A stretch of DNA of 64,000 nucleotides from an uncultured Solirubrobacterales bacterium (GCA_963703235.1 OY969802.1:1805782-1869781); one strand, 5' to 3'; counted from the stretch's first letter, positions 7,112-64,000 are shown. Notes: generated by a model from the letters alone, not told the origin. Made by a program: numbers and translations.

Positions 7112-10100
7112 CTTCCCCTGAGACGCTGCCCGCTCCCCTTCTTGCCCGCGCAGCGGCCCCTGCCTTTCGCGCGCGCCACTCGCTTGCGCTTCGCGCAGCG
7201 CGGTTTTCCGTTGCGCCCGTCGGGGTTGGGGGGACCGACGAAGCTGGCGCTGCCGGGCGAGGGGCTTACCGGCGGCGGGGTCGGCGCCGGTTTGCAGGCA
7301 TCTGCCTCGCAGATCGGCGGCGGCGGCTGGTTCTGGGCAGCAAGACCGCCCTCTACGCGGACGTCATAGACGTCTCGCAGCGCGTCCTTGTCCTGGCCGA
7401 CCAGCTGCTCGGTGGTGAAGAGGAAGGCGTCATCGCCGCTCGCGGAGGCGTCGGCGAAGAGCGAGGGCTCGCTGCTCTCGCCGTTGGAGAGCAGGTAGAG
7501 ACAGCCGCCGTTGGAGAAGGTGCCTTCGCAGGAGCCAGAATCCTTCTGCCTCCCACATGTATACGTCTAGGCAGGTGGGGAAGACCTGGCTCTCCGAGCC
7601 GCTCCGCGGGCAGCCGTCCAAGCCGTTGACGTCGGCACCGACCAGCGCGTCTGTCGTCTCGAAGAAGACCCGCTCGCCGTCGGCGGAGAGGTTTCGGGTC
7701 GTCAGCGCTGATCCCCGCGCGGGGATCAGCGCCGCCGGGATCATGCGGGCCAGCCTCGGCGTTCCGCTCGGCGCCGCCCCGCTCGGATTGCAGGAGACGC
7801 AACTGAGGCCCTCCCCCACCCGGTAGCGGTAGAACTGCGGGACGCCTTCGTTCTCGTACTCGCTGAGCTTCTCCTGGGAGCGGAAGAGCAGGGTTTGCCC
7901 GTCGGGGCTGACGCGGGAGGTCTTCTGGAACCAGTTTAGGGTGAGCCCCATCCGCGGGGTCGCGGAGGCCGACCAGTTGGCCGTGTCAGACGTTCTTTCG
8001 TCGCCTCCCGCATCGAGCCTGGCGATGAAGCTGATCTGCGCCCCGCCGCCTTCCATTTCGCGCCAGAGGTAGAGGTTGCAGTTGCCGCTCCCGCCCGCCA
8101 CCGGCCCCTCGCAGTTCCCCGGCGTCGCCGGCCCGCCCCCATCGAGGTCGCCGTTGGCGGCGAAGTAGACGTGGGTGCCGTCCTGGGAGATGCCGAGCAC
8201 TCCCTGGACGTCGGCGCCGTTGGCATCGTCGGTGTCGAGGACCAGGTCAGACAGCTTCTCCCCCGTCGCGCTGTGGTCGTAGCGGTAGAGGTCGTTGCCC
8301 GCGTTGGGGACGACCTCCTGGTTGGCCGACCAGTGGATGTGGGTGGGGTCGACCGCCAGCCCCTGCGGGTGCCTGGCGCCTTTGACGAATTCCAGCTCGA
8401 CTTCGGTGATCGCGCCCGGGTTGTTGAGTTTGGCCCGCCCGATCACGTCGTTTTTCTCATCGGCCCAGTAGAGCCGGTCGCCAGCGACGGCGATGCCGCG
8501 GAAGCGGTCGCTGGTGCCGGTGAAGAGGAGTGAGGTCCGCTCTTTCGGTTCTGCCAGCGTAATCCGCACGAGGTTGCCGTTGTTGCCTTCGGTGAAGTAG
8601 AGGTAAGTGGCGTCAAGCGCCAGCCCGGCGGCGTCGTAGCCGAGCGGCTCGCCGCCTTCATCCACCGTCCAGGGCTGGATCACTTCCCCGCCTTCGATCG
8701 TGGCGCGGGCGATGCCCTTAGTGAGGAAGGGAAATACAGTGCCGCTCCCCGCGTTCGCCCAGTAGATGTGAGTAGTGTTGACCGCGATCCCCTGCGGGTT
8801 GTGAGCACCGGTGATGAAGCTCGGTTTGACTTCTTCGCCGTCGAGCTCCGCCCGCCCGATCGTGCCGTTGCCGTTCTGGCCGTCGACGGCGTCGGTCCAG
8901 TAGACGTGTTCGGAGTCGGTCGTCACCCACTGGGGTTTGACGGGAGCTTCGATGAAGCTGGGGTCGACTTCGGTTTGTCCGTCTAAGGTGGCTCGCCCGA
9001 TCGTCCCGGCTTTGGGGTCTGCCCAGTAGACGTGGGAGCCATCGACCGCGATTCCCTTGGCCGAGGCAGGCAGGAAGTCGAGCTGCGTTGGCGAGCCGCC
9101 GATGCCCGCACGGGCGATCGCCGCCGGTTCGGGTTCGGGTCCGGTGGTGGCGTCGTTCGTCAGCTTCTCTGAGGAGGTGAAGAAGGTCTTGGTGCCGTCT
9201 TTGCTGGCGCCCATGAAGGCGGCGGGCTGGGTGCCGGCGGCGTCAGCGCCGCCGAGTCCCAGGCCGTTGGTCTTCTTAGTCGCCGAGACGTGGATCGTGC
9301 AGGCTTTGGCCGCTTCGGTGCAGTTGCCTTCGATGTCGAGCGCGCTCTGTGGCTCGGTTGGGTTGAGGCGCAGGTAGAGCTGCCCGGTGCCTGCCGCGGT
9401 GAAGGAGAGCGAGCCCTCGGGGGTGACGGCGCGCTGTTCCTGGAGGTAGTAGCTGCGCGCGGTGCCGCCGGTTGCGAGGGTGGCCGGGCTGGTGCCTTGC
9501 ACCCAGTCATAGGGGCCGGCGAAGGCGCCTTGGGGCGGGCTCTGGCCGTCGTTTAGGACGCTGGCGAGGCTTATCTCGCCGCTGTCGCGATCCCAGGCGT
9601 AGAGGTTGGAGTCCCCTTCGAGAGCCGCTGGGGTCAGTTTGGCGTCGGCTTCGAAGATCATCTTCGAGCCGTCGGCGGAGGCGCCGGCGTAGCGGGGGGC
9701 CAGGTTGGGGATGTAGTCGACGATCGTCTCCAACGGCCCACCGTCGCTGGGGCGCCTCAGAAGCGTCGTTTCCTCGGGTTCGGTCAGTTTGGTCGCCTCG
9801 TCGAAGACCGCCGAGAAGTCGGGCAGCCAGCCGATCGCGTGGGCCTTCTGGCCGGTTGCCGCGGGGGGCAGCAGGCCTTCGGTGAACCAGCCTCCTGCGC
9901 CGCGGCTTGCCAGGTAGAGGGGGAGTTCCTGAGAGCCTTCGCCTCCCGGGAAGCCGGCGTCGCTCATGAAGGTGATGCCGTCACCCGTGGGCGTCGCCTG
10001 GACAAAGGAGGAAAAGCCGATCGCGTGGCCGCCGTTCTTCTGCACGGGGGAGGCCTGCTCATAGGCGCGGCAGTCGGGAAGGTGGGCGGAGGGCAGATCA

Positions 10101-36968: not shown

Positions 36969-37014
36969 GAGATTCGCGTTTGGCCCCTGTCAGGGGCTCA
37001 ACGTGAACCTCGTC
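36969..37014. repeat. 46-bp palindromic element (type 2), intergenic copy; probably serves as a bidirectional terminator hairpin
   Basis: gagattcgcgtttGGCCCCTgtcAGGGGCtcaacgtgaacctcgtc lies between the convergent sirC-like and hemolysin III genes. It is homologous, as the reverse complement, to 59556..59601 inside nuoG. Confidence 0.6.
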
Positions 37015-37018
37015 TTCT

Positions 37019-37723
37019 TCAGGCCTCCGGCAGGGCGAAGAAGGCGACGGCGGCGAAGTGGGCGGCGGCGGCGAGGATGACGAAGAGGTGGAAGACCTCG
37101 TGGTAGCCGAAGACGCGCGGGTTGGGGTTGGGCCGCTGGGTGGCGTAGACGATGGCGCCGGCGGTGTAGAGGAGACCGCCGGCGGCGACCAGCAGGGTGC
37201 CGGCGGCGCCCATTTCGCTCCATAGCGCCGGGAAGGGGATAACCGCGATCCAGCCCAGCGAGAGGTAGACGAGCGCCGCCACCCATTTCGGGTGCTCGAT
37301 CCAGAGGATCTCGACGACCGCCCCGGCGACGGCGCCGACCCAGACGGCGACGAGGATCGCGTCGGCAAGGGCGCCGTCCAGCGCCAGCAGCGCGAAGGGC
37401 GTGTAGGTGCCGGCGATGAGGAAGAAGATCATCGAGTGATCCAGCCGGCGCATCCAGCGGCGCAGGTCCGGCCGCTTCCAGTCGACGCGGTGGTAGAGAG
37501 CGCTGGTGCCGAGCAGGGCCGAGAGGCTGGCGGCGTAGATGGCGACGGCCAGAGTCGCCCGCGGGGTCTCGGCGGCGGCGATCAGGGCGACGCCGAGCCC
37601 GAGCGAGACGAAGAAGGCCCACTCGTGCGAGACGCCCCGCAGCTTCGGTTTGACCGCCGCTACCGCGTCGGATGCAATTTCCTTTGCAGATTCCGCCTTT
37701 TCGGCGGCCCTTGCCCGCACCAT
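37019..37723 (-). CDS. hemolysin III / PAQR family membrane protein
   Basis: The track ORF extends to 37786. The ATG at 37723 is plausible. Motifs SHEWAF..., LYHR, DHSMIFFLIAGTYTPF and HEVFHLFV. Confidence 0.8.
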   Translation of the reverse strand: MVRARAAEKAESAKEIASDAVAAVKPKLRGVSHEWAFFVSLGLGVALIAAAETPRATLAVAIYAASLSALLGTSALYHRVDWKRPDLRRWMRRLDHSMIFFLIAGTYTPFALLALDGALADAILVAVWVGAVAGAVVEILWIEHPKWVAALVYLSLGWIAVIPFPALWSEMGAAGTLLVAAGGLLYTAGAIVYATQRPNPNPRVFGYHEVFHLFVILAAAAHFAAVAFFALPEA

Positions 37724-45172: not shown

Positions 45173-45198
45173 GTCCGGCACCGTATCGAGCCGTGCGG

Positions 45199-45315
45199 TT
45201 GGGCCGATCCGGGTGGGAGTTTCACTTAACTTTTCCCGAAGACAGGTTGTGGCTGTCCGCGAGCCTCGCTGCGGAAAAAGTACAAGACGTTCCACCCCCA
45301 CCCGGATCGGCCCAA
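45199..45315. repeat. perfect 19-bp inverted repeat (TTGGGCCGATCCGGGTGGG / CCCACCCGGATCGGCCCAA) around a 79-bp lower-GC spacer
   Basis: Arms at 45199-45217 and 45297-45315, read directly. Lies in the divergent ABC-ATPase / HAD intergenic region. Confidence 0.9.
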
Positions 45316-45328
45316 TAGCCTGGCGCGG

Positions 45329-46138: not shown

Positions 46139-47325
46139 GCGCCGCGCCAGCGAGCGAGCACCGCCCCGGCGTCGCCTTCGCCGGCGTCTTCGCGGTCACC
46201 TTCTGCGGCCTGGTCGCGGTCGGCGCCGTGCTGCCGGTGCTGCCGCGCTTCGTGCACGGCCCGCTCGACGCCGGCAACGTCGCGGTCGGCGTGGTAATCG
46301 GCTCCTACGCGATCACCGGGCTCCTCCTTCGCCCCTTCGCCGGCCGCCTCGCCGACCGCCGCGGGCGCAGGACGACCGTGCTGCTGGGATTCGCCGTCGT
46401 CGCCGTCGCCGGCTTCCTCTACCTGCTCCCATTCGGCGTCCCGGGCCTGATCGCCGCCCGACTGCTGCTGGGGGCCGGCGAGGGGGCCGTCTTCACGGCG
46501 GGTTCGGCCTGGATCGTCGACATCGCCCCGCCCGAGCGGCGCGGGCGGGTGATCGGGCTCTACGGGCTCGCCGTCTGGGCCGGGCTCAGCGTCGGGCCGC
46601 TGCTCGGCGAGCTGCTTCTCAGCGCCTCTGGCTACACCGCGGTCTGGCTCTTCGCCGGCGCGGCACCGCTCCTCGGAGCGTTGATCGCGCTGCGCCTGCC
46701 CGACCCTTTCCAACCAGTAGGCCACGCCGAGCAGCACCCCCTGATCGCCCGCGAGGCGCTCCGCCCCGGGATCGCGCTGGCACTGGCCTCGCTCGGTTAC
46801 GCCACCGTCGCCTCCTTTGTCGTCCTCCACCTCGACGCGCGCGGCATCGGCCACGGGGCGACGGTCTTCGGCGCCTTCGCGACGATGGTGGTGCTGACGC
46901 GGCTGATCGGGGGCGACCTGCCGGACCGCGTCGGCCCGGCGCGGGTCGCGACCGCGGCGGCCGCGGTCGAGGCCGTCGGCCTGACGACGATGGGGCTTGC
47001 GCAGACCTTCACCGTTGCGATCGCCGGCGCGCTGGCGATGGGCGCGGCCTTCTCCCTGCTCTACCCCTCGCTCTCGCTGATCGTCGTCGGCCGCGTCCCG
47101 GAGACGCGCCGCGGGGCCGCGCTGGGCACCTTCACCGCCTTCTTCGACGCCGGCATCGGCTTCGGCGCGCCGCTGGCCGGGCTGATGGCGGCGCTCGTCA
47201 GCTACGAGGGGGCCTTCCTCTTCTCAGCCGCGATCGCCCTCGTCTCGATGGCGACCATCGCCTTCACGATCTCCAGCCGCGGCCGCGAGCTTCTGACCCG
47301 CCCGGGGGGACGAGCCGTGAGTTGA
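46135..47325 (+). CDS. MFS transporter
   Basis: Track ORF of 396 aa, about 12 TM. Motif GRLADRRGRR in loop 2-3. ATGA overlap with the HAD gene. Confidence 0.8.
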   Translation: MSAAPASEHRPGVAFAGVFAVTFCGLVAVGAVLPVLPRFVHGPLDAGNVAVGVVIGSYAITGLLLRPFAGRLADRRGRRTTVLLGFAVVAVAGFLYLLPFGVPGLIAARLLLGAGEGAVFTAGSAWIVDIAPPERRGRVIGLYGLAVWAGLSVGPLLGELLLSASGYTAVWLFAGAAPLLGALIALRLPDPFQPVGHAEQHPLIAREALRPGIALALASLGYATVASFVVLHLDARGIGHGATVFGAFATMVVLTRLIGGDLPDRVGPARVATAAAAVEAVGLTTMGLAQTFTVAIAGALAMGAAFSLLYPSLSLIVVGRVPETRRGAALGTFTAFFDAGIGFGAPLAGLMAALVSYEGAFLFSAAIALVSMATIAFTISSRGRELLTRPGGRAVS

Positions 47326-47355
47326 GCACCCATAGGGTGTCTAACTCACGGCTCG
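47311..47355. terminator. bidirectional hairpin between convergent genes (13-bp perfect stem, 19-nt loop)
   Basis: CGAGCCGTGAGTT ... AACTCACGGCTCG. The MFS stop codon lies at the top of the 5' arm. Confidence 0.5.
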
Positions 47356-47375
47356 TCTCTCAGATTGCGCAGCGA

Positions 47376-48278
47376 TCAGTCGCGATCGGCGATTAGCAGG
47401 GTCTGGGCGGCGCGGCCGATGCGGCCCTGCTCGTCGGAGAGGACGGACTCGGCGGTGCCGATCCCGCTGTGCTGCGGCAGGGTGACCGCGTCGACGCACA
47501 CCCACTCGCCCTCAGGCATCCGCTCCAGGTGAACGCTGAGGTCGACGTTGATGAAGACGTAACGGCTCCAGTCGAGAACCGCGCTGATCCCATTGCCGAC
47601 GTCGGCGGCGACCAGCGTGCGCTGCAGAGGCGTCGGCTCCTCGCCGGCGACCAGATCGCAGCCCATCCGCATCCAGACCGTCGCCGGGCCGGGCTCGAGG
47701 AAGCCGCCGCCCACCGAGCGCCATTCCATCGCCGTGTGGTAGCCGACGTCCTGGCCGGTGGCGAAGAACTCGGGCCACGAGCCCTGCTCGGGGCCGGGTG
47801 GTGGATCGGGCGTGGAGAGGACGTCGGTGGGGATCTCGATCAGCCTGGTGCGCAGGCGCCAGGCACGCGCCCGCATCAGCTCGCCGTCGTCGCCGGAGAG
47901 CGTCGCCTCAACCATCTGCACGCTGCGGCCCGGCCGCACCACCTCCGCCTCGACCCGAACCGGTCCGATCGGTACCGGCTTGAGGATCTCGAAGGTGACC
48001 CGCCCGACTTGGAAGCCCTCGGCCCCATCCACCCGCTCGATCTCTCTTCCAAGCAAAGCTGACGGGGGACCGGCATGCTGCGCACCGGGGTCCCACGGCC
48101 CGCGCGTCAGCTCGGTAGCTATATAGCCATCGCCGTCGGTCTCATAGAACGCTTCTGGCACGGCGCGGATCGTAAGGGCGTCGGGAGTCGTCTCGACAGT
48201 GCGTCGCGAAGCGGGCACCGCAGAGAGGTTCCCGCCGCGAAGCGGCAGCAGATTCGTCGCCGAAGGCGACATCGGCAC
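47376..48278 (-). CDS. acyl-CoA thioesterase-like double hot-dog protein; start uncertain
   Basis: Track ORF of 300 aa. The TRGPWD...HAGPPSALL pattern is typical of the thioesterase-like superfamily. The annotated N-terminus runs through the 27-bp inverted repeat at 48175-48302, so the true start is probably internal, for example the GTG at 48161. Confidence 0.6.
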   Translation of the reverse strand: MPMSPSATNLLPLRGGNLSAVPASRRTVETTPDALTIRAVPEAFYETDGDGYIATELTRGPWDPGAQHAGPPSALLGREIERVDGAEGFQVGRVTFEILKPVPIGPVRVEAEVVRPGRSVQMVEATLSGDDGELMRARAWRLRTRLIEIPTDVLSTPDPPPGPEQGSWPEFFATGQDVGYHTAMEWRSVGGGFLEPGPATVWMRMGCDLVAGEEPTPLQRTLVAADVGNGISAVLDWSRYVFINVDLSVHLERMPEGEWVCVDAVTLPQHSGIGTAESVLSDEQGRIGRAAQTLLIADRD

Positions 48279-48302
48279 TGTCGAGACGACTCCCGACGCC
48301 CT
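48175..48302. repeat. perfect 27-bp inverted repeat around a 74-bp structured spacer
   Basis: AGGGCGTCGGGAGTCGTCTCGACAGTG at 48175-48201 and its exact reverse complement at 48276-48302. The spacer holds CGCGAAGCGG twice (48205, 48236) and the hairpin GTCGCCgaaGGCGAC. Confidence 0.9.
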
Positions 48303-56544: not shown

Positions 56545-57850
56545 GACGCGCGTTCTGCTCGAGCACGCCGAGGACCCGGCGCTGCGCACTCTCGCCGGCT
56601 ACAAGAGCCGCGGCGGCTACGCGACCCTGGAGCGGGCCTACCGCGAGCTGGAGGCCGACGAGATCCTCAAGGAGCTCGAAGAGTCCGGGCTGCGGGGACG
56701 CGGCGGCGCCGGCTTCTCGATGGGCAAAAAGGCCTCCTTCCTGCCGCGCGGCGAGATGGCCAAGTACCTCTGCTGCAACGCCGACGAGTCCGAGCCCGGC
56801 GCCTTCAAGGACCGCGAGCTGATGCAGCGCAACCCACACCAGCTGATCGAGGGGATCGCGATCGCCGCGATCGCCGCCGACGCCGGCCACGCCTTCATCT
56901 TCATCCGCGGCGAGTACGACTTGCAGGCCGACGTCCTCGAGGCCGCCGTCGCCGAAGCCTACGAGGCGGGCTACCTGGGTCAGGACATCCTCGGCTCCCA
57001 CCGCGACCTGGAGCTGGTCGTCCACCGCGGCGCCGGCGCCTACATCTGCGGCGAGGAGACGGCGCTGCTCGACGCGCTCGAGGGCAAGCGCGGCAACCCG
57101 CGCCTGAAGCCGCCCTTCCCGGCCGTGCAGGGGCTCTACGGCGGGCCGACCCTGATCAACAACGTCGAGACGCTCTCCAACGTGCCGCGGATCGTCGCCA
57201 ACGGCGCCGAGTGGTTCCGCGGCTTCGGCACCGAGCAGTCGCCGGGGACCAAGGTCGTCTCGGTCTCCGGCTGCGTGCGGCGACCGGGCAACTACGAGGT
57301 CGAGCTGGGGGTGCCGACGCGGGAGTTGATCTACGACCTCGCCGGCGGTCCGCTCGAGGGCCGCGAGGTGAAGGCCTTCTATCCCGGCGGCTCCTCCTCC
57401 CCCGTTCTCACCGCCGAGGAGGGGCTCGACCTGCCCTACAGCTTCGAGGCGATGGCCGAGGCCGGCTCGATGCTCGGCTCGGGCTCGATCATCGTCGCCG
57501 ACGACAGGGTCTCGATCCCGCACATGGCGCTGCGCACGGCGCGCTTCTACCACCACGAGTCCTGCGGCAAGTGCACCCCCTGCCGCGAGGGGACGAACTG
57601 GACGGTGAAGATGCTGGAACGGGTGGTGCGCGGGGAGGCGACGCCGATGGACCTCGACATCGTCGCCTCGGTGCAGGAGAACATCATCGGCCACTGCCTC
57701 TGCGTCCTCGGCGACTCGATGGCGATGCCGGTAGGGGCAATGGTGCGCAAGTTCCGCGAGGAGTTCGAGGACACGATCGCCGTCGCCTCCGACGAGAGCC
57801 GGCTCGCCGCCGTCCAAGGCGTGCCCGAGACCCTGGGGGCGGCGACGTGA
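56537..57850 (+). CDS. nuoF: NADH-quinone oxidoreductase subunit F
   Basis: Track ORF of 437 aa. Motifs GRGGAGF, CNADESEPG and ESCGKCTPCREG. Confidence 0.95.
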   Translation: MPETRVLLEHAEDPALRTLAGYKSRGGYATLERAYRELEADEILKELEESGLRGRGGAGFSMGKKASFLPRGEMAKYLCCNADESEPGAFKDRELMQRNPHQLIEGIAIAAIAADAGHAFIFIRGEYDLQADVLEAAVAEAYEAGYLGQDILGSHRDLELVVHRGAGAYICGEETALLDALEGKRGNPRLKPPFPAVQGLYGGPTLINNVETLSNVPRIVANGAEWFRGFGTEQSPGTKVVSVSGCVRRPGNYEVELGVPTRELIYDLAGGPLEGREVKAFYPGGSSSPVLTAEEGLDLPYSFEAMAEAGSMLGSGSIIVADDRVSIPHMALRTARFYHHESCGKCTPCREGTNWTVKMLERVVRGEATPMDLDIVASVQENIIGHCLCVLGDSMAMPVGAMVRKFREEFEDTIAVASDESRLAAVQGVPETLGAAT

Positions 57851-60594
57851 GCGGCCGCGAGGTGACGCTGATTGTCGACGGCCGCGAGGTGAGCGCGACC
57901 GAGGGCGAGATGCTGCACGACGCCGCCACCCGAGGCGACGTCGAGATCCCAGTCTTCTGTTACGAGCCGAAGCTGGGCGACCCGGTCGGCGCCTGCCGCA
58001 TGTGCCTGGTCGAGATCGAGGGGATCCCGAAACTGCAGACCTCCTGCTCGACGCCGGTCCGCGACGGGATGGTCGTCCACACCCGGACCGAGCAGGTGAA
58101 AGAGGCGCAGAGCGCCGTGGTCGAGTTCCTGCTCGTCAACCACCCGCTCGACTGCCCCGTCTGCGACAAAGGCGGCGAATGCCCGCTGCAGGACATCACG
58201 ATGGGCTGGGGGCCGGGCAAGACGCGCTTCACCGACCCCAAGCGCCACTTCGAGAAGCCGCTGCCGCTGAGCCCGTTGGTCGCGATCGACCGCGAGCGCT
58301 GCATCCTCTGCTACCGCTGCGTCCGCTTCAGCCAGGAGGTCAGTGAGGATTCGCAGCTGCAGCTGCTGGAGCGCGGCGACCGCACCTTCGTCGGCACCTT
58401 CGACGAGCGGCCCTACGTGGCGCCCTTCCACGGCAACATCACCGACCTCTGCCCGGTCGGGGCGCTGACCAGCTACACCTACCGCTTCCGCGCCCGCCCC
58501 TGGGACATCGAGGAAGCGGGCTCGGTCTGCACGCTCTGCCCCAGCCAGTGCAACGTCAGCTTCACCGTGCGCGACGAGAAGGTGGTGCGGACGGTCGCCC
58601 GCGACAACGCGGAGGTCGACGACGGCTGGCTCTGCGACCGCGGCCGCTACGGGTTCGAGATGTTCGCCGCCGAGGAGCGGGTGCGGGCGCCGCGGCTGCG
58701 CGGCGGCGAGGAGCCGGGCTGGGAGGCGGCGATCGAGAAGGCTGCCGCGGGCCTGCGCGCCAACGCATCCGGGGTTGACCACACTGGAGGGGGGTCAATC
58801 TCCGATGCGTCGAGCGGGGTCGCCGCGATCGTCGGCGACGCCTCCAATGAGGAGGGCTACCTGGTCCAGAGAATCCTGCGCGAGGCGCTCGGCTCTCCCC
58901 ACGTCGAGTCGCGCACTGCCGGCGGCCCGTCGCGGAACACCCTGCTGCACCTTTCCCAGCCGCGGCTCTCGGCCAGGATGCGCGACATCGACGACGCCGA
59001 CGCGATCCTCCTCGTCGGCACCGACCCTCTGCACAGCTCGCCGATCCTCGACCTGCGGATCCGCAAGGCGATGCGACGCAACGGCGCGAAGCTGGTCCTG
59101 GCCACCGACCGCCCGACCGCGCTCGACGGTGGCGCCGAGGTGGCGGCGCGCTACGCGCCCGGTGGCGCGACAGGGTTCTTGTCCGAGCTGGCCGCTGCGC
59201 TCACCGCAGACGCGGCCGACGCCGGTATCCCCTCCTCACTCGCAACTCGTCGCAGTGACGGTGGAGGGCTGTCGCCCGAGGCTTTCGGCTCCTCCCGCGC
59301 AAAACGTTCGGAGGGGATACCGGCGTCGGCCGAGGTCGCCGAGGTGCTGGGTGGCGCCGGGCGGGTTGTGGTCGTCTGGGGGGAGCGGGTCGGGCGCGAG
59401 GGCGAGGGGGCACTGCGCGCCTTGCTCGACGTGGCACACGCGCTGGGCTTGGCTGACAAGGAGGGCGCCGGCCTGCTGGAGGTGCCCGAGCTGACCAATG
59501 CCCGCGGCCTGCGCGAGGTCGGCTGCCTCCCCGACGCCGGCCCGGGCCTTGGCGAGGCGAGGTCTACGTTGAGCCCCTCACAGGGGCCAAATGCAGACCT
59601 CACCGGCAAGTCGTCCGAGGAGATCCGCGCGGCGCTGGAGTCGGGTGAGCTGAAGTCGGTCGTGCTCTTCGGCGTCGACCCGCTGCGGGACTTCCCCGAC
59701 TCCCTCGCCTGGGCCCGCGCCCTGGCAGCGGCCAAGCACGTGATCTGCTTCTCGATGTTCGAGACCCTGACCACGGCCGCCGCCGACGTCGTCTTCCCCC
59801 TCGAGACCCACGCCGAGAAAGACGGCACGGTTACCCACCCGGATGGCCGCCTCCAACGAGTCCGCCCCTCGGCCTCGCGCCCCGGCGACATCCGCCCGAA
59901 CTGGGGCGTGCTGGCCGAGCTTTCACTTGCACTCGGCCACGACACTGGAGTCGTCTCCCAGCCCTCGGCCCTGGCGGCGCTTACCGAAGCTGTGCCGTTC
60001 TACGCGGGCATCGACGACGCAGCAATCGGCGGCCGCGGCATCCGCTGGCAAGACCGCGACGCCGCCAGCTCATTCCCTGCCGCTGAGCCAGCAGACACCG
60101 CCTCATCCCTCCCCACTCCCACGAACGGCCCGAAGGACGGCGACGACGCCGGTGTCCCCTCCGAACGTTTTGCGCGGGAGGAGCTGGAAGCTTCGGGCGA
60201 CAGCCCTCTACCGTCACTTCGACGAGTTGCGAGTGAGGAGGGGATACCGGCGTCGTCCCTGACCCTCGGCACGTACCGCGACCTGTGGGCGGGGCCGATC
60301 ACGGAGTTGAACCCCCCGCTGAAGTTCCTGCAGCCGCAGCAACGGATCGAGCTATCGCTTGCCGACGCCGAACACCTCGGCCTGAAGAACGGCGAGCAAG
60401 TCGAAGTTGCTCAGAACGGAACCACCGTGTTGGCCCGAGTCGCGATCAAGGAACGGGTTCAGGAGGGTGTCTGCTTCCTGATCGAGGGGACCGCCGAGGA
60501 CAATGCCAACGGCTTGCTGAACGGCGGGCCGGTGAGCGTTGAGATCGCCAAGGTGCCAGCCGCAGCTCCGGCGACCAGCGAGGAACCAGCGTGA
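57847..60594 (+). CDS. nuoG: NADH-quinone oxidoreductase subunit G, enlarged by in-frame palindromic-element insertions
   Basis: The GTG at 57847 overlaps the nuoF stop (GTGA). Motifs CYEPKL...CRMCLVE and HPLDCPVCDKGGEC. At 915 aa it is about 100 aa longer than I recall for typical actinobacterial NuoG (recollection, not checked here). The extra segments coincide with the repeats at 58765-58808, 59218-59327, 59556-59601 and 60145-60254. Confidence 0.9.
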   Translation: MSGREVTLIVDGREVSATEGEMLHDAATRGDVEIPVFCYEPKLGDPVGACRMCLVEIEGIPKLQTSCSTPVRDGMVVHTRTEQVKEAQSAVVEFLLVNHPLDCPVCDKGGECPLQDITMGWGPGKTRFTDPKRHFEKPLPLSPLVAIDRERCILCYRCVRFSQEVSEDSQLQLLERGDRTFVGTFDERPYVAPFHGNITDLCPVGALTSYTYRFRARPWDIEEAGSVCTLCPSQCNVSFTVRDEKVVRTVARDNAEVDDGWLCDRGRYGFEMFAAEERVRAPRLRGGEEPGWEAAIEKAAAGLRANASGVDHTGGGSISDASSGVAAIVGDASNEEGYLVQRILREALGSPHVESRTAGGPSRNTLLHLSQPRLSARMRDIDDADAILLVGTDPLHSSPILDLRIRKAMRRNGAKLVLATDRPTALDGGAEVAARYAPGGATGFLSELAAALTADAADAGIPSSLATRRSDGGGLSPEAFGSSRAKRSEGIPASAEVAEVLGGAGRVVVVWGERVGREGEGALRALLDVAHALGLADKEGAGLLEVPELTNARGLREVGCLPDAGPGLGEARSTLSPSQGPNADLTGKSSEEIRAALESGELKSVVLFGVDPLRDFPDSLAWARALAAAKHVICFSMFETLTTAAADVVFPLETHAEKDGTVTHPDGRLQRVRPSASRPGDIRPNWGVLAELSLALGHDTGVVSQPSALAALTEAVPFYAGIDDAAIGGRGIRWQDRDAASSFPAAEPADTASSLPTPTNGPKDGDDAGVPSERFAREELEASGDSPLPSLRRVASEEGIPASSLTLGTYRDLWAGPITELNPPLKFLQPQQRIELSLADAEHLGLKNGEQVEVAQNGTTVLARVAIKERVQEGVCFLIEGTAEDNANGLLNGGPVSVEIAKVPAAAPATSEEPA
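58765..58808. repeat. imperfect 16-bp inverted repeat inside nuoG (possible small palindromic insertion)
   Basis: gcatccggggttgacc ... ggtcaatctccgatgc, 13/16 complementary with a 12-nt loop. It encodes NASGVDHTGGGSISDAS at a position where, as I recall it, NuoG homologs have only a short linker. Confidence 0.4.
59218..59327 (-). repeat. 110-bp TIR-bearing palindromic element (type 1), copy a, in-frame in nuoG
   Basis: GACGCCGGTATCCCCTCC...GGAGGGGATACCGGCGTC. Its reverse complement is about 95% identical to copy b. It is translated as [37 protein letters not shown]. Confidence 0.9.
59556..59601. repeat. 46-bp palindromic element (type 2), in-frame copy in nuoG
   Basis: ggcgaggtctacgttgaGCCCCTcacAGGGGCcaaatgcagacctc is the reverse complement homolog of 36969..37014. 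It is translated as ARSTLSPSQGPNADL. Confidence 0.8.
60145..60254 (+). repeat. 110-bp TIR-bearing palindromic element (type 1), copy b, in-frame in nuoG in the opposite orientation to copy a
   Basis: GACGCCGGTGTCCCCTCC gaacgttttgcgcgggaggag ... cgacgagttgcgagtga GGAGGGGATACCGGCGTC. It is translated as [37 protein letters not shown]. Confidence 0.9.
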
Positions 60595-61589
60595 TCCCCG
60601 TCGCCGACACCACCTTCGTCGAAGCGACCTGGATCATGGTCGTCAAGTCGCTGCTGATCTTCGGCGTGATCTTCGCGATCCTGCCGCTGATGACCGTCCT
60701 GGAGCGGAAGCTGATCGGCCGCTTCCAACACCGCTACGGGCCCAACCGGGTGGGGCCGTTCGGGATCCTGCAACCGCTTGCCGACGTCGGCAAGCTGCTC
60801 AGCAAGGAGTCCTTCCGCCCCGCCAACGCGATCCCGACCCTGTTCGTGCTGGGGCCGCTGCTGCCCGTCCTCTCCGGCGTCCTGGCGCTGGCGATCATCC
60901 CCTGGGGCGACGTCCAGGACGGCGTCGGCCTCTACGGGATCGACGTCCCGATCGGCATCCTCTACTTCTTCGCGGTCGGCTCGATCGCCTTCTACGGGGT
61001 GCTGCTGGGCGGCTGGGCCTCGGGCTCCAAATACAGCCTGCTGGGCGCGATGCGCGGCGCCGCGCAGCTGATCTCCTATGAGGTGGCGATGGGCCTGGCG
61101 CTGCTCGGCGCGATCATGATGGGCGGCTCGCTGTCGCTGGTCGACCTCGTCCACGCCCAGGGCGAGATGTGGTTCGTGGTGCCGCAGTTCGTCGGCTTCC
61201 TGATCTTCATGCTGGCCGGCTTCGCGGAGACGAACCGGACCCCGTTCGACATGCCCGAGGCCGACGCGGAACTGGTGCAGGGCTTCATGACCGAGTACGG
61301 CGGCATGCGCTTCGGCAGCTTCCTGCTGGTCGAATACATGGAGATCCTGGTCGTCGCGGGGATCGCGGCGGCGGTCTTCCTCGGCGGCTGGATGGGTCCC
61401 GGCCCGGGCTTCCTCGACCCGGTCTGGATGCTGGCCAAGATGCTCGGCCTGGTGCTGGTCTTCATCTGGGTGCGGGCGACGCTGCCGCGGCTGCGCTACG
61501 ACCAGCTGATGAGCCTCGGCTGGAAGGTGCTGCTGCCGCTGGCGACCCTGAACGTGCTGGTGACCGCGGTGCTGGTGGTGGTCACCTGA
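60591..61589 (+). CDS. nuoH: NADH-quinone oxidoreductase subunit H
   Basis: Track ORF of 332 aa, GTG start overlapping the nuoG stop. Motifs ERKLIGRFQHRYGPNRVGP and FAETNRTPFD. Confidence 0.95.
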   Translation: MIPVADTTFVEATWIMVVKSLLIFGVIFAILPLMTVLERKLIGRFQHRYGPNRVGPFGILQPLADVGKLLSKESFRPANAIPTLFVLGPLLPVLSGVLALAIIPWGDVQDGVGLYGIDVPIGILYFFAVGSIAFYGVLLGGWASGSKYSLLGAMRGAAQLISYEVAMGLALLGAIMMGGSLSLVDLVHAQGEMWFVVPQFVGFLIFMLAGFAETNRTPFDMPEADAELVQGFMTEYGGMRFGSFLLVEYMEILVVAGIAAAVFLGGWMGPGPGFLDPVWMLAKMLGLVLVFIWVRATLPRLRYDQLMSLGWKVLLPLATLNVLVTAVLVVVT

Positions 61590-61646
61590 TGGGTGTGGCG
61601 ACTTATCCGTCATATACACCGATAACTCGCCACACCGGAGGCGACC

Positions 61647-62189
61647 GTGGCTGAATTCCCCTATCTGAAAGACCAGGATGTGGTCGAGGTCCAGCGGGGG
61701 CCGGAGCCGGGCGGAGTCGGCGGCGCCTACCGCGCCTTCGGCGAGACGCTGCGCGGGTTGAAGACGACGATGGCGCGGCTGATCGAGGGGCCGCTGACGA
61801 TTCAGTACCCGGAGGAGAAGACGCCGGTCTACCCGCGCTTCCGCGGCCGCCACAAACTCCACAAGTTCGAGGACACCGGCCTCGAGAAGTGCGTCGGCTG
61901 CTCGCTCTGCGCCGCCGCCTGCCCGGCCGACTGCATTCGCGTCGTCGCCGCCGAGAACGTGCCCGGCGAGCGGGTCTCGGCCGGCGAGCGCTATGCCGCC
62001 GTCTACGAGATCAACCTCTCGCGCTGCATCTTCTGCGGCTACTGCGAGATCGCCTGTCCCTTCGACGCGATCACGATGGGCCACGACTACGAGATGGCCG
62101 AGTACGACCGCGAGAACCTGATCTTCACCAAGGAGATGCTGCTCGCCGAGTCGATCGAGCGGACGCCGCTGCGGAGCGAGGGCGAGTAG
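61647..62189 (+). CDS. nuoI: NADH-quinone oxidoreductase subunit I
   Basis: Track ORF of 180 aa. Two 4Fe-4S motifs, CVGCSLCAAACP and CIFCGYCEIACP. Confidence 0.95.
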   Translation: MAEFPYLKDQDVVEVQRGPEPGGVGGAYRAFGETLRGLKTTMARLIEGPLTIQYPEEKTPVYPRFRGRHKLHKFEDTGLEKCVGCSLCAAACPADCIRVVAAENVPGERVSAGERYAAVYEINLSRCIFCGYCEIACPFDAITMGHDYEMAEYDRENLIFTKEMLLAESIERTPLRSEGE

Positions 62190-62890
62190 TGGAGGAGATC
62201 CTCTTCTTCGCCGCCGCGATCGGCGCCCTCGGCGGCGCCGTCGGTGTCGTCGCCATGCGCAACCCCTTCTACAGCGTGCTGGCGCTGATCGTCCACCTCT
62301 TCTCGCTCGCGGTCCTCTTCCTCCTGCTCAGCTCGGCCTTCCTCGCCGCCGCCCAGGTCGTCGTCTACGCCGGCGCGGTGATGGTCCTCTACGTCTTCGT
62401 AGTCGCCTACGTAGGCGGCGAGCACGAGTCCGCCTGGGAGCCGATCCCCGGCCAGCAGTTCCTGGCCCCCCTCCTCGGCATCGCCCTCTTCGTAGAGCTT
62501 GCAATAGCCGTCCTAGGCTCCTCCCTCCTAGCCCTGGGCACCGAGGGACCAGAAGTGGCGCCGGGCTTTGGCGATCCGGCGGCAATTGGGACCTTGCTCC
62601 TGGAGCGCTTCCTGATCGCCTTCGAGGCCGCGTCCATTCTGCTCTTGCTCGCCGCGGTTGGGGCGGTAGTGCTAGCTGGGCGGCAGCGGTCGCCGGGTGA
62701 CGCTGGCGGTGCGATCGCGCCAGCTGGCGGTCAGGCGGCGCTCGCCTCTGAGGAGGGGCCGGGTAGCCCCTCTGAACGTTTTGCGCGGGAGGAGAGCACC
62801 CCAAGCGGCGACAGCAGCAAAACTCTCAATCGACGAGTTGCGAGTGAAGAGGGGCTACCCGGCCCCTCCCCCGCAGGTGGGTCCGCGTGA
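62189..62890 (+). CDS. nuoJ: NADH-quinone oxidoreductase subunit J with a C-terminal extension partly encoded by a type 1 palindromic element
   Basis: The GTG at 62189 overlaps the nuoI TAG by 1 nt. Motifs [13 protein letters not shown] and [19 protein letters not shown]. After the last helix ([11 protein letters not shown]) there is a tail of about 70 aa containing [30 protein letters not shown]. Confidence 0.85.
62755..62866 (+). repeat. type 1 palindromic element, diverged copy c, in the nuoJ 3' tail
   Basis: GGGGCCGGGTAGCCCCTCT gaacgttttgcgcgggaggag ... cgacgagttgcgagtga AGAGGGGCTACCCGGCCCC. The TIR differs from copies a and b by paired (compensatory) changes in both arms. Confidence 0.85.
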
Positions 62891-63186
62891 CGGTCGAGTG
62901 GTACATCGTCCTGTCGAGCCTTCTGTTTGCAATCGGCGCCACCGGCATCCTGATCCGCCGCAGCCCGGTAGTGATCCTCCTCTGCCTAGAGCTAATGCTG
63001 AACGCCGGCAACCTCGCCCTGATCGCCTTCAGCCGCATGGTCGGCAACCAGGAGGGCCAGGTCTTTGCCCTGATCGTGATGGTCGTCGCCGCCTGTGAGG
63101 TGGTCGTCGGGCTCGGCCTGATCGTCGCCATCTTCCGCCGCAGACTGCCACTCGACGTCGATCGGCTGAGGGAGCTGCGCGGGTGA
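62887..63186 (+). CDS. nuoK: NADH-quinone oxidoreductase subunit K
   Basis: Track ORF of 99 aa, GTGA overlap with nuoJ. Motif [13 protein letters not shown]. Confidence 0.95.
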
Positions 63187-64000
63187 GCGCCACCGCCTGG
63201 GCCTGGCTGGTCCTGCTCTTCCCGCTGCTCGGCTCGATCGTCATCGGGCTCGGCTTCCGGGCGCTGCCGGCGCGCGCCGCGGGCGCGATCGGCACCGCGA
63301 CGATCGCGCTCTCGTTCCTCTGCGGGATAGCCGCCCTCCTCAGCCTGCTCGGCGACGAGCCGGACGCGCGCCACCACGCTTCCTCGCTCTGGGACTACGC
63401 CAGCGCGGGTGGACTCGACGTCGAGCTCGGCATCTTCGTCGACCCGCTCTCGGTCTTCATGGTCCTCGTCGTCACCGGCGTCTCCACCCTGATCCACCTC
63501 TACTCGTTCGGCTACATGGAGTCCGACGAGGGCTACCGACGCTTCTTCAGCTACCTCAACTTCTTCGTCTTCTCGATGCTGCTGCTGGTCCTCGCCGGCA
63601 ACTTCGTGCTGCTGACGGTCGGCTGGGCCTTCGTCGGCTTCGCCTCCTACGCGCTGATCAGCTTCTGGTACCGGCGCACGACCGCGACCGGGGCCGGGAT
63701 GAAGGCCTTCGTGATCAACGTCGTCGGCGACATCGGCCTCGTCCTCGCCGCCTTCCTGATCTTCCGCGAACTGGGGACGTTCGACTACGAGGCGGTCTTC
63801 GCCAAAGCGCCGGAGGTCTTCGCGGTCAACGAGTGGACGATCGTCGCGATCTGCCTGCTGCTCTTGGTCGGCGCCTTCGCCAAGTCGGCGCAGCTGCCGC
63901 TCCACACCTGGCTGCCCGACGCGATGGAGGGGCCGACGCCGGTCTCCGCCCTGATCCACGCGGCGACGATGGTGACCGCCGGCGTCTACCTGATCGCCCG
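63183..64000 (+). CDS. nuoL: NADH-quinone oxidoreductase subunit L, N-terminal part (runs off the window end)
   Basis: The GTG at 63183 overlaps the nuoK stop. My own translation gives [18 protein letters not shown]...[15 protein letters not shown]...[31 protein letters not shown]. It is absent from the track because no stop lies in the window. Confidence 0.9.

Follow-up and report, generated by a model that had tools for sequence, protein, structure and literature searches.

To our knowledge, palindromic repeats that lie in frame in essential genes are mainly known from Rickettsia. The Rickettsia palindromic elements (RPEs) are dispersed repeats of about 100-150 bp, a substantial share of which lie in frame in unrelated, often essential genes and are read through (PMC10969869). 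In a stretch of 64,000 nt from the genome of an uncultured Solirubrobacterales bacterium (GCA_963703235.1, OY969802.1:1805782-1869781; hereafter the window), a preliminary description made from the sequence had pointed to two mirror-image segments read through in nuoG, the gene for NADH-quinone oxidoreductase subunit G of respiratory complex I, and had likened them to RPEs. Our analysis makes it likely that these segments are copies of a lineage-specific hairpin repeat of ~117 nt in uncultured Solirubrobacterales, which has its main niche in the 3' flank of housekeeping genes and a few ancient, apparently translated in-frame copies, and is under selection at the level of the nucleic acid.

Other repeats and structured elements have been described that provide points of comparison. 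TRIT (tuberculosis Rho-independent terminator), a hairpin motif reported from Mycobacterium only, is present in 147 copies in M. tuberculosis at a narrow position around the stop codon; it is largely bidirectional and centred about -8 relative to the stop codon, and its authors suggest a factor that recognises the conserved sequence (PMC3152330). The ERIC/IRU, Correia, BOX/RUP/SPRITE and REP/BIME repeats are short and non-coding, form hairpins in transcripts and cluster in intergenic regions; SPRITE is terminator-like, and intragenic copies of ERIC are known (PMC10969869). The nuoG RNA motif (RF01748) is a candidate structured RNA listed for Enterobacteriales (PMC2864571).

The segments at 59218-59327 and 60145-60254 are reverse complements with 94.6% identity over 112 nt. 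Their inverted ends measure 18 bp (GACGCCGGT(A/G)TCCCCTCC / GGAGGGGATACCGGCGTC), in agreement with the mirror identity of about 95% and the 18-bp ends first reported. Sequences matching the 18-nt ends occurred four times in the window, confined to the two segments, with ~0.53 occurrences expected by chance and none of 100 shuffles reaching four. Both segments were predicted to fold as long hairpins (-77.8 kcal/mol, z ~ -8, and -73.2 kcal/mol, z ~ -7.4). They are open in the nuoG frame, and the peptides that had been quoted for them proved exact. The encoded NuoG of 915 aa is ~100 aa longer than relatives that lack the inserts (P0117 and P0030, 816-818 aa; M. smegmatis NuoG, 8e9g_G, 794 aa), as had also been surmised. 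The mirror segments of 110 bp were thus correctly seen, but they do not represent the unit. Because 110 nt is not divisible by 3, the unit was corrected by family alignment to 117 nt, or 39 codons (59214-59330 and 60142-60258), and it is this same unit that is present in some orthologs and missing from others. A sensitive search of the window moreover revealed a third, more diverged copy, overlooked in the preliminary description, in the C-terminal tail of nuoJ, with the orientation and reading frame of the second nuoG copy. Below, the strand carrying box 1 (GAACGTTTTGCGCGGGAGGAG) is called the sense strand and the opposite strand the anti strand. The features of the window that concern the element are as follows.

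57847-60594, plus strand: nuoG, NADH-quinone oxidoreductase subunit G, 915 aa, identified by open reading frame and translation, a codon gene finder, Solirubrobacterales NuoG homologs and PDB 8e9g_G (E = 2e-100); it hosts two elements and one small hairpin insert.
59214-59330, minus strand: copy G1 (NuoG site 1, aa 456-494); the sense strand of the element is the minus strand, so that the mRNA carries the anti strand; 118.4 bits with covariance model R1; perfect 23-bp stem.
60142-60258, plus strand: copy G2 (NuoG site 2, aa 766-804); sense strand on the mRNA; 118.0 bits with R1; interior of the site-1 type.
62753-62869, plus strand: copy J, within nuoJ (62189-62890); 131.4 bits with R1; stem GGGGCCGGGTAGCCCCTC / GAGGGGCTACCCGGCCCC, which differs from the nuoG stems yet is still complementary.
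60163-60183 (plus), 59289-59309 (minus) and 62774-62794 (plus): box 1, GAACGTTTTGCGCGGGAGGAG; three exact matches in the window, 0 expected.
60220-60243 (plus), 59229-59252 (minus) and 62831-62854 (plus): box 2, CGACGAGTTGCGAGTGA(G/A)GAGGGG, from the alignment; three matches in the window, 0 expected.

The element consists of a 22-bp closing stem, variable in sequence with compensatory changes, and a 73-nt interior with the two boxes and a central GGCGNCAGC. Box 2 is a degenerate direct repeat of box 1 (TTGCGnGnGAGGAG). The stem of copy G1 is perfect over its 23 bp, and that of copy G2 contains one G·T pair. With filters off, covariance model R1 recovered just the three copies in the 64-kb window (118-131 bits) and one distant relative at 45198-45316 (32.7 bits). 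The latter, on the minus strand, is a hairpin of the same geometry (arms of about 22-34 bp, 73-nt interior) that retains GAACGT… and …AGTGA at the junctions and GCTGTCCGC in the centre, the rest of the interior being different. It fills the space between two divergent genes (5'/5'), which sets it apart from the main family, and probably represents a distant subfamily. The element had no match among the Rfam 15 models, including the nuoG motif RF01748 and self-cleaving ribozymes, at E values up to 10, apart from spurious matches to microRNA hairpins far below the gathering scores, and no match anywhere in the 64 kb attained its gathering score. On the basis of the anatomy or the Rfam results, we rejected integron attC sites, group II introns, ribozymes and a small open reading frame in the intergenic copies.

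To follow the element beyond the window, we scanned one genome per species with a pattern derived from the two boxes. This yielded at least 113 stretches, nearly all from metagenome-assembled genomes (MAGs) of Solirubrobacterales/Thermoleophilia, often with several places per genome. A search with nhmmer over 989 kb of loci listed at least 153 near-full copies in 117 sequences, and the copy counts given below refer to these listed copies. Loci L004-L116 were picked by exact matches to both boxes, and L001-L003, L117 and L118 were fetched via their proteins. Searching the genome collection for both inverted ends as an exact pair returned no match; the ends vary between copies. Several MAGs contained at least about 10 copies per genome. 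The repeat is therefore a dispersed palindromic family, as had been proposed, with additional hosts in NuoJ and FbiC (FO synthase) and most copies outside of genes, and not the product of a local inverted duplication alone. Note that one contig labelled Chloroflexota (JBLMYD010000138.1, L022) encodes a Solirubrobacterales-type NuoG with a site-1 element; this contig is probably mis-binned.

Counting the copies with their gene context, as the preliminary description had suggested, showed strict rules of placement. Among the 153 listed copies, 94 (about 60%) were intergenic and 59 genic. The intergenic contexts were tandem in 48 cases, convergent in 33 and divergent in 2. Within 50 nt 3' of a stop codon, 60 copies had the anti strand on the mRNA strand of the upstream gene, compared to 6 with the sense strand; the 60 anti copies were located 1-40 nt from the stop codon (median 17 nt). 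The 66 stop-proximal copies sit behind 26 housekeeping orthogroups, ribF, acyl-CoA synthetase, pfk, ftsZ and recA among them, and copies recur behind the same housekeeping genes across genomes. About 22 of these groups have the anti orientation, indicating that the orientation rule is independent of any single locus. A copy behind a gene is often followed by another that is oppositely oriented, and adjacent pairs of copies were arranged '-+' in 17 of 17 cases, with none in the other three arrangements. At the loci fetched via proteins, the element was absent from the 10-kb flanks and occurred just at NuoG site 1, NuoG site 2 and the NuoJ tail.

We next consider the constraint on the element. 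RNAalifold analysis of 89 intergenic copies returned the 22-bp closing stem and six interior pairs, with two-sided compensatory changes at 23 of the 28 predicted pairs; as to the interior fold, the conserved boxes are incapable of showing covariation and the variable parts align poorly. Compensatory changes were also found inside single orthologous coding sites (14 of 22 pairs at NuoG site 1 and 13 of 22 at site 2), demonstrating that the hairpin is maintained in place within nuoG. Pairs of the G·U type were strongly biased, with 96 on the sense strand (carrying GAACGTTTTGCG) and 16 on the other; counted by copy, the ratio was 50 to 2 (p = 4e-15). The 18-nt core of box 1 (CGTTTTGCGCGGGAGGAG) was invariant in all 11 aligned copies from the protein-fetched loci and intact in a twelfth (L117), whereas the first three bases of box 1 vary (e.g. 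TCA in L002 and GAG in L001). The same 11 copies were also invariant over most of box 2 and a good part of the central motif, both intact in the twelfth, while the stems differed in a compensatory manner. Note that invariant runs of up to 41 nt occur in conserved parts of nuoG as a result of codon bias, and long invariant runs in the boxes are thus uninformative by themselves. However, the same box nucleotides are kept in non-coding copies and in copies that code for another peptide from the opposite strand, which places the constraint on the DNA or RNA and not on the peptide. In line with this, 3 of 5 A/T-ending codons at conserved residues were kept inside the boxes, compared to 0 of 41 outside the elements (Fisher p = 7e-4), in a gene with a GC3 of 0.87. 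Thus, stem and boxes appear to be kept by selection on the nucleic acid, with the structure probably forming on the strand that carries GAACGTTTTGCGCGGGAGGAG. The combination of an invariant interior and a covarying stem with the positional rules and the strand-specific wobble pairs suggests that some factor recognises one strand in its folded form.

The genic copies occupy four host sites, NuoG site 1, NuoG site 2, the NuoJ tail and a position near residue 226 of FbiC. Both orientations were found across genomes at the two NuoG sites and at the FbiC site, and the six copies in the NuoJ tail were all sense. NuoJ has 190 aa without the element (L002) and 233-250 aa with it. Each orientation uses one reading frame, giving …PSERFAREE…SGDS…RRVASEEG… for sense and …PSSLATRR…LSPEA…SSRAKRSEG… for anti. 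The interior length was 41 nt in 55 of 57 aligned genic copies, the exceptions being L058 (+3 nt, still in frame) and L020, a doubtful call. In contrast, it ranged from 40 to 44 nt across intergenic copies, a variation by 1-3 nt that marks these as non-coding. The lock on length and the single frame per strand suggest that the coding copies are translated, presumably as an extra, probably disordered, hydrophilic loop; the RPE-like, in-frame character assigned to them at the outset is thereby borne out. Tryptic peptides predicted to span the inserts include FAREELEASGDSPLPSLR and SDGGGLSPEAFGSSR. Site 1 coincides with a break in the alignment to M. smegmatis NuoG (8e9g_G). An AlphaFold2 model of NuoG built with 22 close homologs was poor overall (mean pLDDT 46.8), with pLDDT <50 in the insert regions, and gives a weak hint that residues 456-490, 548-585 and 715-831 may be unstructured. 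An exhaustive protein search with the 39-aa peptide of copy G2 returned four weak or repetitive matches in a database of 50%-identity cluster representatives, which evidently seldom carry the insert. The doubtful copy in L020 (6949-7064) overlaps a gene of the acyl-CoA carboxylase beta type at its predicted C-terminal end and is read across two element frames (…LLTRNSS…PPAQNVRR…); it reflects either a mis-called stop or a replacement of the native C-terminus.

The history of the nuoG copies was traced in orthologs. The closest NuoG proteins are from Solirubrobacterales (at least 73% identity, 816-1005 aa). An alignment of 22 NuoG sequences showed both inserts at the same two positions in most proteins and their absence from some; two proteins carried the opposite orientation at site 1, resulting in an unrelated peptide. 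The inserts are also absent from M. smegmatis NuoG, and their absence from these proteins speaks against ancestral conserved sequence, one of the alternatives named at the outset. Across 97 scored orthologs, the two sites were occupied as follows.

NuoG site 1: anti in 39, sense in 3, no element in 55.
NuoG site 2: anti in 12, sense in 47, no element in 38.

When clustered by their variable columns, copies grouped by site across genomes (G1 with G1, G2 with G2 and J with J), as expected for old insertions that are vertically inherited. Copy G2 of the window is an exception. Its nearest neighbours are G1 of the window and G1 of L003, while the close relatives L003 and L001 retain a distinct G2-type interior. 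Similarly, the flipped G1 copy of L087 is nearest to the G2 copy of its own genome. These patterns indicate that the nuoG copies are old and vertically inherited and were at times lost, inverted or overwritten. We infer that gene conversion between copies occurred, with site-1-type sequence overwriting the interior of G2 in the window. The mirror identity of 95% would then reflect recent homogenisation of two old copies rather than two new insertions. Since the stems are palindromic, a donor can pair with the recipient in either orientation, which would account for the flips.

Some orthologs show further variation at or near these sites. The apparent 'empty' sites of L117 and L118 are not clean, as the linkers themselves vary. 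At NuoG site 2 of L118 (~8090-8115, protein P0030), where the element is missing, the same linker holds a perfect in-frame hairpin with an 11-bp stem and a 2-nt loop (GGGCGGTTGGG-TG-CCCAACCGCCC). This hairpin could be the remnant of a stem that has lost its interior, or it could have inserted independently. Site 2 of P0071 contains a partial tandem duplication of the element (…SPERFAREE… and …RRVAS… each twice), and P0078 (L087) has a 29-aa insert after about residue 305 of NuoG.

How does the element compare with the described systems? As with RPEs, in-frame copies of 39 codons are present in NuoG (two sites), NuoJ and FbiC, a likeness of features only. The host, in contrast, is an unrelated, high-G+C actinobacterial lineage, making the element at most an RPE analogue. 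Moreover, most copies are intergenic under a strict stop-codon and orientation rule, the interior is invariant while the inverted ends covary, and both orientations occur at the same coding site, all unlike RPEs. With TRIT the element shares the character of a lineage-specific actinobacterial hairpin with conserved sequence and structure and a narrow position relative to the stop codon, which is a resemblance in function alone. It differs from TRIT in its length of 117 nt with an asymmetric 73-nt interior, in being orientation-specific and mostly 3' of the stop codon, and in occurring also deep in genes in frame. Like ERIC, Correia and SPRITE, it is a hairpin repeat clustered intergenically with intragenic copies. 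Unlike the ERIC/Correia/BOX/REP group, however, the conserved part is the interior and not the termini, a U-tract is lacking, the strand that folds according to the G·U asymmetry is opposite to the mRNA of the upstream gene, and a related insertion sequence or clear target duplication was not found. In contrast to the RF01748 motif, which it failed to match even at E = 10, the element is not nuoG-specific. Its length (117 nt, below about 500 bp), its at least 153 copies with non-coding intergenic members and its presence/absence polymorphism (absent from site 1 in 55 and from site 2 in 38 of the 97 orthologs) resemble a miniature inverted-repeat transposable element (MITE), except that the inverted ends vary freely with compensation and the termini are not conserved in sequence; with its invariant interior and covarying stem, the element inverts the plan of classical MITEs and REPs. 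REP/REPIN sequences are palindromes of 20-40 nt with a GTAG/CGTC tag, inverted doublets and a RAYT gene, whereas the present unit has 117 nt, a conserved interior and no general tag; the CGTC ends of the nuoG copies are not general in the family.

A number of points weigh against a selected, strand-specific element with its niche behind genes. Box invariance in L004-L116 is circular, as these loci were selected by exact box matches; many copies are orthologous and do not constitute independent observations; and the genic and intergenic calls come from our own codon log-odds gene finder, which reproduces the nuo operon exactly. The G·U-favoured strand of the intergenic copies is antisense to the upstream gene, a placement not foreseen by a simple model of a 3'-UTR stabiliser or terminator. 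That one coding site can hold either orientation speaks against a strand-specific role in nuo mRNA. Template-switch 'quasipalindrome correction' could keep the stems perfect without selection, although it leaves the invariant boxes and the wobble asymmetry unexplained. A T-run after the stem was absent on both strands of the 60 stop-proximal copies listed, and a terminator scan of 57000-64000 was empty. Without a U-tract, the element is not a canonical intrinsic (Rho-independent) terminator; canonical terminators are scarce in Actinobacteria. As to mobility, a transposase or autonomous partner was not noticed in the 989 kb of loci, whose proteins were not systematically searched. As to target-site duplication, direct repeats of 2 nt next to the copies were weakly in excess (28 observed versus ~10 expected), the stem ends being ambiguous. 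The dispersal over at least 30 distinct loci, together with the presence/absence variation, suggests that the element has been mobile. The selfish mobile element originally envisaged remains putative.

The idea first put forward, a selfish element adapted to be translatable in both orientations, may be read as an active MITE that had recently and independently inserted twice in nuoG. A dispersed family with inverted ends, variable presence among orthologs, in-frame coding copies and the 95% identity of the two nuoG copies would all fit. However, both sites are occupied in a large share of the 97 orthologs and are common to relatives down to about 73% protein identity, with copies grouping by site, and the G1-type interior of G2 in the window suggests conversion instead of a new insertion. 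Moreover, the ends covary and are not conserved in sequence as transposase-bound inverted repeats would be, and a clear target duplication was not found. The postulated adaptation to translation in both orientations is likewise not supported: by our estimate, a 39-codon frame at ~70% G+C is free of stops about half of the time, so that four open frames out of six are near chance and unremarkable. The family resides mainly just behind genes, and what selection seems to preserve is the nucleic acid, not the capacity to be translated. Recent and independent insertion is thus largely refuted, and we regard this explanation as a whole as very unlikely. Still less credible, to the point of being dismissed, is an ancestral linker motif of NuoG conserved at the protein level, with the mirror similarity arising from local inverted duplication alone. 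Conservation of PSERFAREE…RRVASEEG and PSSLATRR…SSRAKRSEG among NuoG orthologs would speak for it, but NuoJ, FbiC and over 90 intergenic places contain the same DNA, either orientation and hence unrelated peptides can occupy the same site, many orthologs as well as M. smegmatis NuoG lack the segment, and the rare codons ending in A or T have been kept. It is refuted by the intergenic copies together with the polymorphism in orientation.

Two further explanations take the strand asymmetry into account. The element could be a relic of single-stranded DNA (ssDNA) transposition, a REPIN/REP-like or IS200/IS605-derived (PATE-like) hairpin moved by an HUH (Y1) transposase that reads the folded 'top' strand. 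Such recognition would account both for the strand-specific integrity of the hairpin and for the lack of a clear target duplication. The clustering of inverted pairs in 3' intergenic regions is reminiscent of REP/BIME, and some copies end in CGTC, comparable to the CGTC-tagged REPs (PMC3733652). On the other hand, the tag is not general, the conserved part is the interior and not the hairpin arms, and an HUH transposase was not seen among locus proteins, which were not systematically searched. In old orthologous copies, in addition, both the stems and the boxes are intact, a conservation that mobility as the sole object of selection would not bring about. Targeting by replication direction was rejected, as paired copies in one intergenic region are oppositely oriented and each is tied to its adjacent gene. 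Since orientation follows the neighbouring gene and not a common direction, a transposition relic is the weaker alternative and appears unlikely to us. A purely functional, non-mobile boundary module, that is, a directional terminator that depends on a factor, or an insulator shielding from convergent or antisense transcription, with dual-coding copies in nuoG, nuoJ and fbiC, has more in its favour. It would explain why the boxes do not vary between species, between loci or between the two coding orientations, why nuoG shows compensatory evolution in situ, why wobble pairs are so asymmetric between strands and why A/T-ending codons are retained in the boxes. It also agrees with the strict placement relative to stop codon and orientation, with all pairs being '-+', and with conservation behind the same housekeeping genes in many genomes, and TRIT offers a mycobacterial precedent for a hairpin of conserved sequence at the ends of genes (PMC3152330). 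The missing U-tract, the lack of an Rfam family match, the two orientations at one coding site and the many orthologs that do without the nuoG copies and have no obvious replacement are difficult to reconcile with it, and dispersal over at least 30 loci requires a means of spreading. We therefore consider an exclusively functional module possible but doubtful.

A lineage-specific hairpin repeat with its main niche behind housekeeping genes remains our preferred reading, and for its mechanism we tentatively propose a directional element at gene boundaries. The element would be, or would once have been, a non-autonomous mobile hairpin, the folded strand of which is recognised by a cellular factor. 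Its role might lie in 3'-end formation or in blocking transcription that heads towards the 3' end of a gene, as the folded sense strand would appear in transcripts running in that direction. A '-+' pair could stop traffic both ways, each copy acting just before the neighbouring open reading frame, and in the coding copies translating ribosomes might hold the hairpin open. It is conceivable, if speculative, that the family is no junk DNA but represents an undescribed structured nucleic acid maintained by selection, most likely an RNA antisense to the protected gene, which serves as a directional boundary module by terminating transcription with the help of a factor or by insulating against convergent transcripts. 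The module would be preserved even within coding sequence, so that two codes, one for peptide and one for structure, would overlap in parts of nuoG, nuoJ and fbiC.

A phenomenon resembling that of Rickettsia is thus encountered in a free-living, high-G+C clade of soil actinobacteria, in genes of complex I and F420 biosynthesis. It comes with features that the classic cases lack, namely an invariant interior with a covarying stem, a stop-codon and orientation rule, obligatory '-+' pairs, strand-specific G·U pairs and hairpin compensation inside an essential open reading frame. As a candidate for a new class of gene-boundary element the family is well amenable to study, and it offers a natural system in which to study the tolerance of proteins for inserted loops as well as conversion that flips and homogenises palindromic repeats. 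The length range of NuoG in these MAGs (816-1005 aa) is due to the element family, which can mislead gene callers and alignment-based phylogenies.

The window contains additional hairpins. One of them is also located in nuoG.

59559-59601, plus strand: small in-frame hairpin insert in nuoG, unrelated to the 117-nt element; GAGGTCT-ACGTTGAGCCCCTCACAGGGGCCAAATGC-AGACCTC, core ACGTTGAGCCCCTCACAGGGGCCAAA, peptide ARSTLSPSQGPNADL.

This small insert is absent from several orthologs and present in others with differing segment sequences, in which the palindrome was not verified. Near its site, P0038, P0041, P0059 and P0071 have Gly/Ala-rich inserts, the longest of which (P0041 and P0071) reach about 50 aa. 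On the minus strand, 36979-37004 holds a copy with 96% identity, about 15 nt past the stop codon of a gene on that strand (37019-37723); L096 (2069-2087) is a further place belonging to this observation. Its occurrence both in a 3' flank and in nuoG makes this a second hairpin family of 3' flanks that is also found in frame in NuoG. A further 3'-end hairpin of this genome that is devoid of a U-tract is located at 47309-47357, with 23-bp arms and a 3-nt loop (GACGAGCCGTGAGTTGAGCACCC/GGGTGTCTAACTCACGGCTCGTC), between convergent genes ending at 47325 and 47376. Finally, a perfect 28-bp inverted repeat at 48175-48302 encloses a 72-nt interior made up of three small hairpins of the GCGAAGC/GCCGAAGGC type and precedes a gene that starts at ~48317 (MPKVKK…). 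This repeat has the same overall size but belongs to another hairpin family.

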